This document shows, in pieces, positions 883-13,245 of a DNA stretch of 64,000 bases (position 1 is the stretch's first letter; each line of letters starts with the position of its first letter). The notes under the pieces were generated by a model. The model worked only from the letters and a program-made list of their open reading frames with translations, ran no database searches and was not told the origin of the DNA. The position numbers and the translations under genes were made by a program. This DNA is from Candidatus Woesearchaeota archaeon (GTDB lineage Archaea; Nanobdellota; Nanobdellia; SCGC-AAA011-G17; GW2011-AR18), in assembly GCA_964430545.1 (NCBI GenBank), contig CAYSFG010000024.1, forward strand, positions 24,534 to 88,533, given 5' to 3'.

Positions 883-2091
883 TCATAGATTTAAACTTTC
901 TTTTAATACTTGTTTTATAGTTAAAACATTTGTTTGTGGTATAGTTACTTTAATTTCCTTAGTTCTTCCATATCTTCCTTTGGATACTACCTTTGCATTT
1001 ATTATTCCTAACATATCTAATTCTACAATTATATCAGATATTCTTCTTTGAGTTAAATGTTTTAAACTTATTGATTTACAAAATTCTTTATAAACTTCAT
1101 ATACGTCTCCTGTAAATATTGGTTCATCTATTTTTTCTGATATGGTTAATATTGCTAATAATGCAAGTTGTGATTGTTTTGGTTGTGTTTTTGTTACTTC
1201 TAATATTTTATCTTTCTCAATTTTATCTTCAGCTTCATCTATATGTTCTAATTTTATTTCTATTTCTCCTTTTCTTTCTGCTAATTCACCTGCAACCCTT
1301 AATAATTCCAATGCTCTTCTTGCATCTCCATGTTCTCTCGCAGCATAAGCAGCACATTTTTCTATTACCCCTTCTTTTATTGTATTCTCTTTAAATGCAA
1401 TATTTGATCTTTGTCTTAATATATCTTGTATTTGTATTGCATTATATGGTGAAAAAACTAGTTCTTCTTCACTTAACGAACTTTTTACTCTAGGATCTAC
1501 ACCATCCATAAAAGATAAATCATTAGATATTCCAATTAATGATAATTCTACATTTTTTAGTTCTGAATTTATTCTTGTTAGATTATATAAAATTTCATCA
1601 CCTGCTTTTTTTACTAATTGATCAATTTCATCTAATATTAATATTACTAATTTTTTTTCTTCATCTATATGTTTTAAAAATATTTTATAAACTTCATCTG
1701 TTGGAAGACCAGTAGCAGGTATTTCCAAATCAAATTCTTTTGCTAATTGAACTATTAGTCTATATTCAGTATCTGCTACTCTTTTTAATTTACAATTAAT
1801 ATAAGCTATTTTTATAGGTAAATTTTTTTCCTTTGCAATTTTTATTATTTGTGAAGTTACATATTTTGTTACAACTGTTTTTCCTGTTCCAGTTATTCCA
1901 TATAAAAATAAATTTGATGGTTTTTCTAATCTTAACATAGGTGCTAAAATTCCAGCTATATAATTTATTTGTTCTTCCCTATGTATTATACTGCTAGGAG
2001 TATAATTTGATTGTAAAACTTTTTTATTTAAAAATAATGGTTCTTTGTTTAAATATCCTTGAAAAAATTCTGTTAATGAATCACCTTTCAT
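883..2091 (-). CDS. cdc6: Orc1/Cdc6 replication initiator
   Basis: Walker A GITGTGKT, Walker B ILDEID, GDARRAL sensor, C-terminal wHTH; GGGGTGA SD upstream. Confidence 0.97.
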   Translation of the reverse strand: MKGDSLTEFFQGYLNKEPLFLNKKVLQSNYTPSSIIHREEQINYIAGILAPMLRLEKPSNLFLYGITGTGKTVVTKYVTSQIIKIAKEKNLPIKIAYINCKLKRVADTEYRLIVQLAKEFDLEIPATGLPTDEVYKIFLKHIDEEKKLVILILDEIDQLVKKAGDEILYNLTRINSELKNVELSLIGISNDLSFMDGVDPRVKSSLSEEELVFSPYNAIQIQDILRQRSNIAFKENTIKEGVIEKCAAYAAREHGDARRALELLRVAGELAERKGEIEIKLEHIDEAEDKIEKDKILEVTKTQPKQSQLALLAILTISEKIDEPIFTGDVYEVYKEFCKSISLKHLTQRRISDIIVELDMLGIINAKVVSKGRYGRTKEIKVTIPQTNVLTIKQVLKESLNL

Positions 2092-2165: not shown

Positions 2166-2455
2166 ACACCATCATTTCTAGTGGAATTAAAAAGTAGTAA
2201 ATCTTTCCATTTTTTTGTAATTTATTACAACTTTTTTAATATTTCTTTTTACAAAAACAATATTTATATAACAATTATGATATAATATATATAATATAAT
2301 ATAGAAAAATTTATAAATAAAATATATAAAAAAGCAATTTTTAATAAAAATATAAATAAATACAATTTTAATATAGTTTTAGTCATTAATAAAAAAATTT
2401 CTATTAATATCTTCCATACGAAACTATAGGGGGTAGGTGCAGTGGAAACAATGGT
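2166..2455. promoter_or_regulatory. Probable replication origin oriC: ORB-like boxes around an AT-rich tract
   Basis: TTCCACTAGAAATGATGGTGT (minus, 2166-2186), TTCCATACGAAACTATAGGGGGT (plus, 2412-2434) and TGCAGTGGAAACAATGGT (2438-2455), flanking an almost pure A/T tract (about 2200-2410) upstream of cdc6. Confidence 0.75.
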
Positions 2456-2822: not shown

Positions 2823-3083
2823 ATGGATGAAGAAAAAAGATACTCAAAACAAATTGTAGGTAAAAAAGTTGTTTCAAAAACAGGTAAAGTTTTTGGTGAA
2901 GTTAGTAATATGATATTTGAAGTTCGTACAGGCGAAGTCTTACAACTTGTTCTAAGAAATACAACAGGTTATTGTGAAGGTTTAGATTTGGAAAGGACAA
3001 AACAAAATGAAGTTTTATTACCTTATACTGCTGTAGTTGCTTTGGGTGATTTTATTGTTGTAGCAGAAGAAGAAATAATTTAA
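2823..3083 (+). CDS. PRC-barrel domain protein
   Basis: IVGKKVVSKTGKVFGEVSNMIFE...VVALGDFIVV PRC-barrel pattern. Confidence 0.85.
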   Translation: MDEEKRYSKQIVGKKVVSKTGKVFGEVSNMIFEVRTGEVLQLVLRNTTGYCEGLDLERTKQNEVLLPYTAVVALGDFIVVAEEEII

Positions 3084-8246: not shown

Positions 8247-8657
8247 ATGCCAGTAATAGGATTTAATTTCACAAAATTACATATAGCCAAGAAGGAAGAG
8301 TTTAGACCGGGATTTGAATTTTCTAGTAATGTAACAATTACAAAAGTAGAAGAAAAAGAATATAATCTTTCTAAAGATGAAACTTTAGCTCTATTTGAAT
8401 TTGAGTTTAATATAGGGTATGATAAAGCTGGTTCTATAAATATAGATGGCAAAGTGACTTATTTAGGATCAAAAAAAGAAGTTAAAGAAGTAGTTGAAGG
8501 TTGGAAAAAAGATAAGACCATGGATTCAATTATCTTAAAGATTGTTCTTAACACAATTTTGTATAAATCTAATGTGAGGGCTCTTGAGATGTCCGAGCTT
8601 GTAGGCCTTCCAGCACCATTTAATCTACCATTTATTAGAGATGAAGAAAAGAAATAA
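8247..8657 (+). CDS. Conserved archaeal SecB-like fold protein
   Basis: MPVIGFNFTKLHIAK...INIDGKVTY...GLPAPFNLP pattern; ATG 8247 preferred over TTG 8235. Confidence 0.6.
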   Translation: MPVIGFNFTKLHIAKKEEFRPGFEFSSNVTITKVEEKEYNLSKDETLALFEFEFNIGYDKAGSINIDGKVTYLGSKKEVKEVVEGWKKDKTMDSIILKIVLNTILYKSNVRALEMSELVGLPAPFNLPFIRDEEKK

Positions 8658-8729: not shown

Positions 8730-9503
8730 ATGACAAATCAAAAATTAATAAAAGAAGCATTTCTAAGGGTAAAAAAAGATATCTTAATATTAGAAAAAGA
8801 GAATTTAACACTTAAAAACCAAATTTCTAGCCAAAATGAATCCTTTTTTAAGATTAAGGGGGTTTTAAGTGAGATTTTAAATGCCCTAAAAGAGTTAAAA
8901 GAAGCTAAAAAGGAAGTTTCCAGTGGAAATGATGGGGTTAATCAATCAATCAATCATTTAATCAATCAATCAATCAATCAATCAAACACTAATCAATCAT
9001 TTAATCAATCAAATGAACCCTTAGGTGAGTTAGAATCACCTATAACCCCAATTAAACATGATTTTAAGCTTGATAATCAAAAAATATTTAATACAGTTTC
9101 TAATCAATCAATCAATCAATCAATCACTAATCAATCATTTAATCAATCAATCAATCACTCAGATCCTAATTTTCAAGCTCTAAGAACAAATTTAGAAGGA
9201 GTTTTTAGACTTTTATCTAAACAAGAACTAAAACTTTTTCTTACAATATACCAATTAGAAGATGAGGGAAAAGAACCATTTTATACTGCAATATCCTCGA
9301 AGATGGGGCTTTCTGAGCATTGTATTAGGAGTCATTTGTTCTCACTTTTCAAAAAAAATGCCCCATTATATAAAAAGCGCCTTAACAATAAAAGGAATAT
9401 TATCCACATAAAACCAGATTTTAAGGCTTTAAACTTAAAACAAAAACTTATTGGAATTTATTATGATTCAGATCCACATCAAACCACACTTTTTGACATT
9501 TAA
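8730..9503 (+). CDS. Coiled-coil / NQSI-repeat / C-terminal winged-HTH protein containing an internal ORB box
   Basis: N-terminal heptads, two NQSI tracts, LSKQELKLFLTIYQL...YTAISSKMGLSEHCIRSHLFSL HTH. Confidence 0.8.
   Translation: MTNQKLIKEAFLRVKKDILILEKENLTLKNQISSQNESFFKIKGVLSEILNALKELKEAKKEVSSGNDGVNQSINHLINQSINQSNTNQSFNQSNEPLGELESPITPIKHDFKLDNQKIFNTVSNQSINQSITNQSFNQSINHSDPNFQALRTNLEGVFRLLSKQELKLFLTIYQLEDEGKEPFYTAISSKMGLSEHCIRSHLFSLFKKNAPLYKKRLNNKRNIIHIKPDFKALNLKQKLIGIYYDSDPHQTTLFDI
8918..8938 (+). promoter_or_regulatory. ORB-like box inside a coding sequence
   Basis: TTCCAGTGGAAATGATGGGGT; 18/21 identical to the cdc6-proximal box and close to the archaeal ORB consensus. Confidence 0.7.
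8940..9014 (+). repeat. AATC tetranucleotide array 1
   Basis: (AATC)4 ATTT (AATC)6 AAAC ACT (AATC)2 ATTT (AATC)2 AAAT. Confidence 0.95.
9102..9156 (+). repeat. AATC tetranucleotide array 2
   Basis: (AATC)6 ACT (AATC)2 ATTT (AATC)4. Confidence 0.95.
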
Positions 9504-9835
9504 AAACCTTATTTTATCTTCATTTTTTCAATTTTAATCGTTGTAAACAAATTTTTTAGTATAATTTCAATAATTTCCTTTTAATCAATAAATTTTATTC
9601 TCACTTATGAGATTTTTCAATTTTTTTTTAACTTCTTTATAATTATTTTCTATAATTTTATTGTTTTTTGTGCTATATTAAAATTTAAATATCACTTTTT
9701 TATATCTCACTTTTATAAAATTAATATATCTTTAGTATTATTTTTTTAAATTTTATACTTTTTTCAACAAATACCAAATTTTTACGTTTTTTTATTAAAA
9801 CATTCAATTTTTTTTGTCTAAATTAAATAAAAACC

Positions 9836-9993
9836 GTTCACCTACTGTTCACCGAACCGTTCGGTGACGTCACCTACGTTTACCGAACCGTCCGATAACT
9901 ATCAATAAAATAGGTTATAACATGGTATAAACATAAATTATTTTTCCAATAAAAAAGGATTGTTCGGTAAGTTCACCGAACGGTTCGGTGAAC
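9836..9993. repeat. Phased palindromic GTTCACCGAAC-type array (candidate protein-binding sites)
   Basis: Six half-sites at 9836-9899 forming two roughly 32-bp units, plus three at 9961-9993 including perfect GTTCACCGAAC-G-GTTCGGTGAAC. Confidence 0.9.
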
Positions 9994-10041
9994 AATAAAA
10001 ATTAGTAAACTATAAGAATAAGTATTAATACAAAATAATTA

Positions 10042-10653
10042 ATGGGTGTATTCAGTTTTTTATTTAAAAAAAAGAGTGACGAAGAGCACATAGTAAGAAT
10101 TAATAATAGTTTAAAAGGTTCTTTCTCAAATATTAAAACAGATATGCTACATTTACATAAAACTATTTCTAATCATACAATTCACACTTCAAAAAAATTT
10201 CAGGAAATAGAAGAAAGTATCAAGCGTATGGAGTTAGTTTTAGCTACATTAAATTATCAATCTAAAAAACCATTTAAAGAACCATTAACTATTACACCTA
10301 TTAAAATAGAAGAAGAAATTGAAGAATCAGATCATAATGATATTTTAACAGTACTTAATGGTATACCTCACGCAGAACTTAAGTTATTTAAAACAATTTA
10401 CGATCTTCAACTAAACCTAAATACTAAACATATTTCTTACAAATCATTAGCAAGTTATTTATATCCTGGAAAAGATTATAATTCTATAAGATCCACAATT
10501 ACCCAATTTGTTTTAAGATTACATACTGAAGGGCTTATTGAAAAACAAAGGATAGGTAAGGAGACTTATGTTTGTACAAGTAATCACGGTAATAAAATAT
10601 TAAAAGATGTGAGAATTAAAAGAATAATAAAAGATATAACACTCAAAGATTAA
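10042..10653 (+). CDS. Coiled-coil / C-terminal winged-HTH protein
   Basis: IPHAELKLFKTIYDL...SYKSLASYLYPGKDYNSIRSTITQFVLRLHTEGLIEKQRIGKETYV; shares ELKLFxTIYxL with the 8730 protein. Confidence 0.8.
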   Translation: MGVFSFLFKKKSDEEHIVRINNSLKGSFSNIKTDMLHLHKTISNHTIHTSKKFQEIEESIKRMELVLATLNYQSKKPFKEPLTITPIKIEEEIEESDHNDILTVLNGIPHAELKLFKTIYDLQLNLNTKHISYKSLASYLYPGKDYNSIRSTITQFVLRLHTEGLIEKQRIGKETYVCTSNHGNKILKDVRIKRIIKDITLKD

Positions 10654-12477: not shown

Positions 12478-13245
12478 ATGAAAAAGATGGTAAACAAACC
12501 CTTAGCAGCAATTTATATAAGAGTTTCAACTGAAGAACAAGCCTTGCACGGATTTTCTTTGGCTGGACAAGAAGATACACTAAAAAATTATTGTTCTGCT
12601 TTAGGATACGAATTATTAAAAGTTTATAGAGATGAAGGGAAATCTGCAAAAGATATTAAGAATAGGCCTGCAATGAACGAGCTTCTAAAAGATGCAGAGA
12701 GTAAGAAATTCTCAGCAATATTTATTTACAAATTAGATAGGTTTTCAAGAAGCTTAAAAGATTTAATCCTAACTATAGAAAAATTAAAAGAATGGGGAAT
12801 AGATTTTATTTCCTTACAAGATAGAGTAGAAACTGCTTCTGCTTCTGGGAAACTAATGTTTCATATAATCTCTGCTTTTGCAGAATTTGAAAGAAATATT
12901 ATAGGAGAAAGAACAATTTTTGGAATGGAAAGAAAATCAAAAGAGGGCGGAGCAATAACTAAAGCGCCATTTGGTTATAAAATGATAGAAAAAGCATTAA
13001 AAGTGGATCTTGAAAAAGCTATACAACTTAAACAGATATATGAAGATTTTTTGAATATGTCTATAAGCCTAAATAAGTTAGCAATAAAAAACAATTTAAG
13101 TGTTAATGGTCTTAAGAAAATATTAAAAAATAGGGCGTATTTAGGAGAAGTAAAATTTGCAGGAAAGAATACTAAAGGAATACATGAACCGATATTAACT
13201 GAGGAATTATTTGATAAAGTACAAGAAAAGATGAGAAATTTTTGA
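12478..13245 (+). CDS. Serine recombinase (resolvase catalytic domain plus short recombinase domain)
   Basis: AIYIRVSTEEQ catalytic Ser, DEGKSAK, YKLDRFSRS, EFERNIIGER, APFGY, ILKNRAYLG. Confidence 0.93.
   Translation: MKKMVNKPLAAIYIRVSTEEQALHGFSLAGQEDTLKNYCSALGYELLKVYRDEGKSAKDIKNRPAMNELLKDAESKKFSAIFIYKLDRFSRSLKDLILTIEKLKEWGIDFISLQDRVETASASGKLMFHIISAFAEFERNIIGERTIFGMERKSKEGGAITKAPFGYKMIEKALKVDLEKAIQLKQIYEDFLNMSISLNKLAIKNNLSVNGLKKILKNRAYLGEVKFAGKNTKGIHEPILTEELFDKVQEKMRNF

Follow-up and report, generated by a model that had tools for sequence, protein, structure and literature searches.

We analysed a 64,000-nt stretch of the genome of a Candidatus Woesearchaeota archaeon (contig CAYSFG010000024.1; this whole stretch is the window below), in which the gap between two related genes, here called gene1 and gene2, contains an array of short abutting repeats. 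The array is probably the cognate multi-site docking platform, or operator, of the gene2 protein, a small winged helix-turn-helix (HTH) protein that would use it to autoregulate the gene2 promoter. An autoregulatory operator is the minimum reading imposed by the anatomy of the locus, while the identity of the binder, the stoichiometry and the sign of regulation are what we infer. Elements of this kind, in which repeats are tiled at the promoter of a small winged-HTH binder, are already known. The family to which gene1 and gene2 belong, the grammar of the sites (GT-N5-8-AC units with ACGT junctions and lineage-specific codes), their place beside a DPANN origin, and an origin recognition box (ORB) inside gene1 were not found described in Pfam, NCBIfam, PDB sequence searches or the literature searched.

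Tiled repeats upstream of the probable gene2 promoter

The gap between gene1 and gene2 measures 538 nt (9504-10041) and holds two CG-rich blocks within a chromosome segment of 22-29% GC. The distal array (9836-9898, unstranded) has 54% GC, with 9 CpG in 65 nt, and the promoter-proximal block (9962-9993, unstranded) has 47%, against 11-20% in the flanks, which bears out the description of a CG-rich island by a first-pass annotation made from the sequence alone. Read directly, the distal block is GTTCACC-TACT-GTTCACCGAAC-C-GTTCGGTGAC-GTCACC-TAC-GTTTACCGAAC-C-GTCCGATAAC, that is, six tiled 9-12-bp units of the types GTTCACC, GTTTACCGAAC and GGTGAC|GTCACC in mixed orientation. Its unit starts at 9836, 9847, 9859, 9869, 9878 and 9890 are spaced by 11, 12, 10, 9 and 12 nt (mean 10.8), or about one helical turn, as had been proposed. 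The proximal block reads GTTCGGTAA-GTTCACCGAAC-G-GTTCGGTGAAC, where GTTCGGTAA is followed by a 23-bp palindrome at 9971-9993. This palindrome is a perfect 11-1-11 repeat (9971-9981 and 9983-9993), recovered by our repeat search as I24, and its description as the inverted counterpart of 9847-9868 agrees with two further products of that search: the direct-repeat family D1 (9847-9867, 9878-9898 and 9971-9991) and the inverted pair I1 (9843-9874 with 9966-9997, 32 nt, 88% complementary). The last base of the array is 9993; the end coordinate of 10653 first given for the element merely takes in gene2.

The repeats are far more frequent here than elsewhere in the window. Five of the seven exact matches to GTTYACCKA in 64 kb fall in the array. 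The first-pass annotation had counted nine half-sites, and five of these hold as exact matches; the other four are degenerate (GTCACC forms, CTTACCGAAC and GTCCGATAA), and nine are reached only when up to two mismatches are allowed, with ~1.5 expected from the window-wide density. All five matches to TTCACCGAAC with at most one mismatch in the 64 kb lie inside the gap (0.72 expected), and none of 100 shuffles reached five. A chance origin of the array repeats is excluded.

Conservation was assessed on seven loci from genomes and about a dozen close ones from metagenomes, ~20 orthologous loci in all. In every locus that reaches upstream of gene2, the distal block and the promoter block are kept at a fixed distance from the gene2 ATG, and across the close loci this holds despite a gene2 protein identity of only 50-74%. 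Where the contig is long enough, these loci also have a gene1 orthologue; all have the same distal block and a promoter-like block, and most have a proximal block as well. The first-pass annotation had let its reading hang on the array accompanying the orthologues; the array is present in every one of the ~20 loci, and gene1 orthologue and array are found together wherever the sequence reaches. Each of the 20 loci with the motif cluster has it only once, and in the window it is found nowhere else. A MAFFT alignment of 16 loci gave the distal consensus tGTTCACCtAcGTTtACCGAACnGTTCGGTGACGTcACCtAcGTTTACCGAACAaaCCGAAt, without internal gaps except for a 1-nt length difference between the first two units. 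The proximal block is more variable: in most orthologous loci it consists of one to three GTTCGGTAA/GTTCACCGAAC units of varying number and orientation, and in the L007/L013/L059 clade it is absent, with an extra distal unit instead.

The array lies directly upstream of a probable gene2 promoter (10004-10018, plus strand), composed of a BRE-like AGTAAAC (BRE, transcription factor B recognition element) and the TATA box TATAAGAA, about 28 nt before the ATG. In 16 loci, a block AG.AAA.TATAAAA stands at a fixed distance, about 25 nt, before ATGGG, and from the archaeal consensus it is probably a BRE plus TATA. Because this block is so near the ATG, the gene2 transcript would be leaderless or nearly so. 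The array ends ~10 bp before the BRE/TATA block in the window, and from a few nt to ~35 nt before it in the other loci read.

The gene2 protein as the probable binder

The proposed binder is encoded by gene2 (10042-10653, plus strand; 203 aa). Its AlphaFold2 model has a short N-terminal helix, a long helix (residues 13-73), a disordered linker and a C-terminal winged HTH with a predicted local distance difference test score (pLDDT) above 90; it is one winged HTH plus a long helix, not tandem winged helices. By this model, the protein combines a winged-HTH fold with a dimerisation element in the manner of ArsR/MarR/PadR-type regulators, the long helix being the part that would be available for dimerisation. 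The top Foldseek matches were SqrR, HlyU, CodY-C, NolR and MarR (probability 1.0, E 5e-4 to 1e-2). TubR ranked 15th (E 4e-3), and a profile-to-PDB search gave AspA over ~48 residues, covering the end of the recognition helix, the wing and the C-terminal helix, at a non-significant E of 0.02-0.03; both likenesses are within generic winged-HTH similarity.

No Pfam family matched the gene2 family above cut-off (best DUF7343, 14.5 bits vs 27.6, and DUF6293_C, 14-24 bits vs 27), and there was no NCBIfam match to gene2. Neither gene1 nor gene2 has a ParB-like Pfam match, and the gene2 fold is an ArsR/MarR-type winged HTH; in these respects the pair does not fit ParB/parS partition, with its ParB-type HTH, CTPase N-domain and 16-bp parS palindromes. 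We found 39 close homologues, among which the winged HTH hardly varies; the named ones are 'Candidatus Woesearchaeota' or 'Nanoarchaeota' hypothetical proteins. The family as a whole comprises 256 clusters at 50% identity, nearly all of 160-240 aa. The protein begins with an aromatic-basic tip, MGVFSFLFKKK, and a tip of the form M-[GV]-[FW]-[FW]-x-F-K-K-K is common to most full-length representatives among ~146 family clusters inspected (at most 50% identity); it is also present in an array-less, VQT-rich sister subfamily. We conjecture that the tip is a candidate membrane- or partner-binding element.

The array changes with the protein. Distant gene2 homologues (24-33% identity) also have an array just 5' of a BRE/TATA-like block, in the same layout and with different units: those seen were CGTAACTTACG, GTGACTCACG, GTCAACTTGAC, GTTCACTTAAC, CGCGTAATATACG, GACGTCTACGAC, and GTTCGGTGAAC plus GTCTATAGAC. 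What they share is a grammar of GT-N5-8-AC units, tiled so that the junctions read ACGT. This tetranucleotide is 20-fold enriched upstream of the gene2 family (13.4 per kb vs 0.66 per kb), with a peak of junction spacing at 11, then at 9-10. The gene2 recognition helix, predicted from the AlphaFold2 model as residues 146-162, differs along with the unit: (I/V)RPM(I/L)S is found with CGTAACTTACG, SRSAMAQL with GTCAACTTGAC, IKA(L/M)ISNY with GTTCACTTAAC, VRAMLSRF with GTGACTCACG, and IRST(I/V)(T/S)Q (e.g., IRSTITQF) with GTTCGGTGAAC-like units. Array k-mer similarity was correlated most strongly with recognition-helix identity, at rho 0.61 across all pairs and 0.27 across distant pairs; elsewhere in gene2 the correlation was 0.15 for the N-terminal helix and -0.02 for H1-H2. 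We also considered, and dropped, the idea that the N-terminal region reads the ACGT-core palindromes in a bZIP-like manner, since this region is too little basic and the co-variation lies in the winged-HTH helix.

The first-pass annotation had described the two flanking proteins as related and had taken the array as cognate to one or both of them. The relationship is firm: gene1 and gene2 are related over 52 winged-HTH columns (hhalign 96% probability, E 1.6e-9), both have ELKLFxTIYxL, and both start with SF(S)xVKxDI, after which comes a long helix. A cis-element conserved beside the orthologues is likewise borne out, but the evidence favours gene2 over the two proteins together. That the array is instead bound by the gene1 protein or by an unlinked factor, with gene2 regulated without autoregulation, is improbable. 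Such a reading could appeal to gene1 being always adjacent and a winged-HTH paralogue. However, the gene1 recognition helix, SE[HG]CIR[ST][HY], is nearly constant across lineages whose arrays are unrelated, which makes gene1 the less likely binder; it is the gene2 helix that changes with the arrays, and no array is found in lineages where gene1 is accompanied by a different gene2-like protein. Binding of the gene2 protein to its own upstream array is the simplest reading of these sequences, and very probably the right one.

In the mechanism that we propose, the gene2 protein would dimerise via its 60-residue N-terminal helix, and each winged HTH would read one 9-12-bp GT-N5-8-AC unit. Since the units abut, several dimers could be placed side by side, with the ACGT-type junctions about one helical turn apart; six units would make up the distal block, and the proximal block would have two to three, arranged as the 23-bp palindrome. 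Occupancy of the array would then feed back on gene2 transcription, given that the proximal block ends ~10 bp upstream of the gene2 BRE/TATA.

Several observations weigh against an autoregulatory operator, or against its sufficiency. The co-variation is confounded by phylogeny and modest among distant pairs, and because the pairs are not independent the correlation between helix and array counts as supporting evidence and not as proof. The VQT-rich sister subfamily, which has a different winged HTH and is convergent with gene1, has no array, so that an array is not a requirement across the superfamily as a whole. The sole detectable site in 64 kb is the promoter of gene2 itself, and this lack of an evident regulon hints that the gene2-array complex may itself be the point. 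The six to nine tiled units exceed the needs of a simple operator, and a position upstream of the BRE/TATA fits activation and repression alike.

Origin recognition boxes and competing explanations

The array lies near a canonical origin. An oriC at 2167-2433 (unstranded) sits beside orc1/cdc6 (883-2091, minus strand), with inverted ORBs at 2167-2186 (minus) and 2412-2433 (plus) around a ~200-bp A/T-only DNA unwinding element (DUE). This DUE is the least stable 100-bp and 200-bp segment in the whole window, and the same ORB-type architecture was found beside orc1 in three other loci (L059, L061 and L063). The gene order PolD - orc1 | PRC-barrel - LonB - (ArgRS) - p140 - gene1 - gene2 is kept even at 29-37% gene1 identity, and the order ArgRS-p140-gene1-gene2 down to 25-30% gene2 identity. 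Because gene order is conserved, the gene1-gene2 pair lies 4-9 kb from orc1/oriC in every lineage examined, and the locus was rightly called origin-proximal.

The composite ORB pattern has three matches in 64 kb (2167, 2412 and 8918). The first two flank the oriC DUE, and the third lies in gene1 (8730-9503, plus strand), a 257-aa paralogue with an N-terminal SFxKVKxDI and helix, an NQSI low-complexity region and a winged HTH. This in-gene ORB (8916-8937, plus strand; GTTTCCAGTGGAAATGATGGGG) has a dyad core and a G-string, encodes S-S-G-N-D-G, and follows the full pattern TTCCAnnGGAAAT-NAN-GGGG. It is present in 36 distinct loci, array-less lineages included (e.g., L002:3090, L027:2040, and L049:4105 on the minus strand), and lies 455-990 nt from the array across loci that have one. 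In the 36 loci, TTCCA, GGAAAT and GGGG are 91-100% conserved with synonymous positions fixed, and the variable central bases correspond to the variable amino acid of the encoded S-x-G-N-x-G-[VA]. The ORB noted by the first-pass annotation is thus real, and its sequence indicates DNA-level selection, because the synonymous sites are fixed, the fixed codons are rare in this genome (TCC 2.4% of Ser codons, GGG 9.4% of Gly codons), and the preceding third-codon position is T regardless of the amino acid. A partial precedent for an Orc1 site in coding sequence is offered by the WhiP-binding repeats within the WhiP open reading frame (ORF) at Sulfolobus oriC3 (PMC3607249).

These surroundings invite readings beyond a promoter operator. 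It is possible, though we hold it as a minority view, that the gene2-array complex is a centromere-like or tethering particle that marks the origin region and is coupled via the tip to the membrane or a partner, with autoregulation as a by-product; this would be compatible with a docking platform and would add a function to it. In its favour are the many tiled units upstream of the binder's own gene, as in plasmid centromeres (AspA, SegB; PMC5120986), a single array per locus with no further site in 64 kb, the constant distance range from orc1/oriC at low gene1 identity, the tip conserved in most full-length representatives inspected, and the likeness to TubR in fold and, weakly, to AspA in sequence. 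Yet this fold similarity is that of a generic winged HTH, membrane or partner binding by the tip is a conjecture, and proximity to the origin could be inherited synteny without function. No ParA/SegA/ParM/TubZ-type or ParB-adaptor Pfam family was found among the genes called within 10 kb in six annotated loci (L059, L061, L063, L065, L066 and a 1.07-Mb contig), nor any of these families in a Pfam scan of 25 window ORFs, which took in all those of 120 aa or more between 1 and 30,844 and a minority of the ORFs beyond ~31 kb. The replication or segregation module suggested by the first-pass annotation therefore stands as regards its place near the origin, with its role still hypothetical. An iteron-type replication element, acting as a second origin or an origin-control site, is unlikely. 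The order of an ORB in gene1, an A/T-rich gap, tiled repeats, a promoter-proximal palindrome and a winged-HTH gene does mirror bacterial iteron plasmids and Sulfolobus WhiP/oriC3, where the WhiP winged-helix initiator is encoded beside oriC3 and binds repeats in its own ORF (PMC3607249), and the in-gene ORB is genuine, with its synonymous sites fixed.

Against an iteron-type element, however, the complete canonical origin is only ~7 kb away. No composite ORB (dyad TTCCAnnnGAAA plus G-string) is found in 9504-10041; the nearest to the array is the single one ~900 nt off inside gene1, so that inverted ORBs around a DUE are lacking at the array, and its G-string points toward the gap, a polarity opposite to that of this genome's oriC. 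The A/T-rich stretch of the gap ranks ~10th for instability in the window and is no less stable than ordinary intergenic DNA; the gap shrinks to ~110-165 nt in L028-L030 and L066, and the distance from ORB to array varies. Although an ~11-bp helical register is present, the 9-12-bp units abut in mixed orientation, where iterons are 17-22-bp direct repeats, and gene2 has a single winged HTH where an iteron initiator would have two. Lineages that lack an array still have the ORB, which makes the two elements separable. The array as the replication origin was rejected: the inverted ORBs and the least stable DNA lie beside orc1, at 2167-2433, and the array has no ORB. Since neither a partner NTPase nor an exceptional DUE nor a second ORB was found, we place a centromere or iteron-origin role no higher than possible. 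Pairing of the distal and proximal blocks as an inverted repeat, in a transcript or a cruciform, is highly improbable. The 88% complementarity of 9843-9874 and 9966-9997 would allow it, and a hairpin-type Rfam match covers the region below threshold (21.9 bits vs a gathering score of 245), but the complementarity follows from the blocks sharing units, and the region lies upstream of the promoter block. The loss of the proximal block in the L007, L013 and L059 clade argues against a conserved hairpin, unit number and orientation vary elsewhere, and no compensatory changes that preserve the pairing were seen in the 16-locus alignment. No Rfam family matched above threshold, and a known RNA at the array was accordingly rejected.

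A close comparison for the array as a probable operator of gene2 is AspA of the Sulfolobus plasmid pNOB8, a dimeric archaeal winged-HTH protein whose 23-bp palindromic site lies immediately 5' of the AspA gene, and which forms a multi-dimer DNA superstructure (PMC5120986). The array resembles this in its own 23-bp perfect palindrome and in tiled units upstream of gene2, and there is the weak profile similarity (E 0.02, not significant). In contrast to gene2, AspA has ~90 aa and lacks both coiled coil and N-terminal tip. It spreads from a single nucleation site with no pre-tiled units, and is co-operonic with ParB and ParA, neither of which was found near gene2 in the six annotated loci. The SegB sites upstream of segAB offer a further comparison for an array upstream of its binder's own gene. 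TubR-tubC, ParR-parC and omega-heptad systems consist of small dimeric binders on abutting short repeats at their own promoter, are filament-like, and are both autoregulatory and centromeric. The gene2 array shares with such plasmid-type centromeres its position upstream of the binder gene and abutting the promoter, and TubR is among the gene2 fold matches. To our knowledge, however, TubR/ParR/omega systems always include a cognate motor gene (TubZ, ParM or ParA), and none was found in the gene2 neighbourhood. These systems are plasmid-borne, whereas the gene2 locus is chromosomal, syntenic and without relatives on viral contigs, and the grammar of palindromic GT-N5-8-AC units with ACGT junctions is peculiar to gene2 arrays. 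No relatives of the gene2 module were found on IMG/VR viral contigs, and a mobile-element or viral origin was rejected on this ground and on that of chromosomal synteny.

Other known systems share single features. Iteron replicons of the pPS10, pSC101 and R6K type have the same order of host-initiator box, A/T-rich stretch, repeats, palindromic operator and winged-helix gene; they differ in that Rep and WhiP proteins have tandem winged helices where gene2 has one plus a coiled coil, in that iterons are longer direct repeats, and in that here there is a full canonical origin at a distance of 7 kb, while as an unwinding element the gap is unexceptional. Autoregulated repressors of the ArsR/SmtB, MarR and PadR types include the best structural matches (SqrR, HlyU, CodY-C and MarR). 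Unlike them, gene2 has no evident sensor site and carries an extra N-terminal tip and 60-residue helix, with six to nine tiled sites vs one or two operators, and no model matches above cut-off. The SurR motif in Thermococcales is GTTn3AAC, and the array is like SurR in having palindromic GTT...AAC-type sites at the regulator's own promoter. RacA-ram, Noc and S. aureus RicO (bioRxiv 10.64898/2026.03.06.710092) provide origin anchoring as a concept, with a site-specific binder plus a coiled coil or amphipathic N-terminus and GC-rich palindromes. This likeness is an analogy only, with no homology, and whereas RacA and Noc have sites scattered over the origin region or chromosome, gene2 has a single array at its gene.

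Gene neighbourhood and significance

The A/T-rich 3' flank of gene1 carries a second motif, TCAYTT(T), with the consensus tTAACTCTCAYTTTT (9520-9716, plus strand; starts 9520, 9601, 9692 and 9707). In the 600 nt upstream of gene2 in 26 loci, CTCAYTT was found 61 times in forward and never in reverse orientation, a density of 4.0 per kb vs 0.33 per kb elsewhere (12-fold enriched). The longer motif occurs in 1-6 copies per locus, all of them in coding-strand orientation. In almost every lineage it comes after the gene1 stop, and it remains with gene1 where gene2 is inverted (L065). One copy lies inside gene1 at 9341 and encodes SLF. With only six matches in 64 kb, below chance expectation, CTCAYTTT was rejected as a generic terminator for this genome. 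Its reading as 13-mers of an unwinding element belonging to the array is weakened, as it is still found at the 3' end of gene1 in loci with an inverted gene2 and is absent where the gap is short.

Directly after its ORB, gene1 contains two (AATC)n tracts, at 8940-9012 (~18 copies) and 9102-9161 (~15 copies), with perfect runs of ~6. They encode the NQSI low-complexity region, giving the same peptide from all three frames, and other lineages have TCATTCATTC or CTCACTCAC at this place. Slippage in these tracts would shift the downstream frame.

The conserved neighbour upstream of gene1, p140 (8247-8657, plus strand), has a predicted SecB-like fold: its AlphaFold2 model has a pLDDT of 87, and the top Foldseek matches were the SecB-like chaperone Rv1957 of Mycobacterium and SecB. 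There is no Pfam model for p140. SecB-type chaperones prefer aromatic-plus-basic segments, and the N-terminal tip of gene2 is of this kind, a possible link to p140. On the other side of oriC from orc1, the first gene is always one for a PRC-barrel protein (2826-3083 in the window, L059:1066-1326, L061:5281-5538), and PRC-barrel proteins have been linked to archaeal cell division.

A recombinase gene was observed 0-5 kb downstream of gene2 in every lineage. In the window it encodes a serine recombinase (12478-13245), and elsewhere an Xer/MrpR-type tyrosine recombinase (L059:13075, L061:10638, L063:14176, L065:12940 and L066:12746). Variable toxin-antitoxin genes (PIN, MazE and PemK) surround it, and it may be either a housekeeping Xer or the mark of an integration hot spot. 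Further along the window, a long run of same-strand genes at 21123-41664, mostly without a Pfam match, has a strong positive GC skew and includes a T2SSE/VirB11-type ATPase, an SLT plus M23 lytic enzyme, an RPA-like OB-fold protein and an FG-GAP protein. This run may represent a mobile island, or one that serves the cell surface or interaction with a host.

Almost nothing is known of how DPANN archaea segregate their chromosomes or control replication, and these organisms are not yet open to genetic manipulation. The locus described here offers a pair of protein and DNA site with predicted lineage-specific recognition codes, in which ~ten array types can be matched to recognition-helix variants. 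Its place next to oriC, together with an ORB kept in gene1 against codon usage, suggests a link to the replication cycle. Tentatively, the locus might be a DPANN-wide organiser of the origin region, with Orc1/Cdc6 on the gene1 ORB and a gene2 polymer on the array, tethered by the tip to the membrane or a partner and possibly handled by the SecB-like p140. If so, docking of Orc1/Cdc6 on the gene1 ORB would couple the module to the replication cycle, and the module would be a minimal segregation or origin-anchoring device in cells without an obvious ParA- or SegA-type motor at the locus. Even on the minimal reading, the gene2 proteins constitute a new archaeal DNA-binding family, not covered by a Pfam or NCBIfam model, that is fairly large at 256 clusters and has a readable binding grammar.

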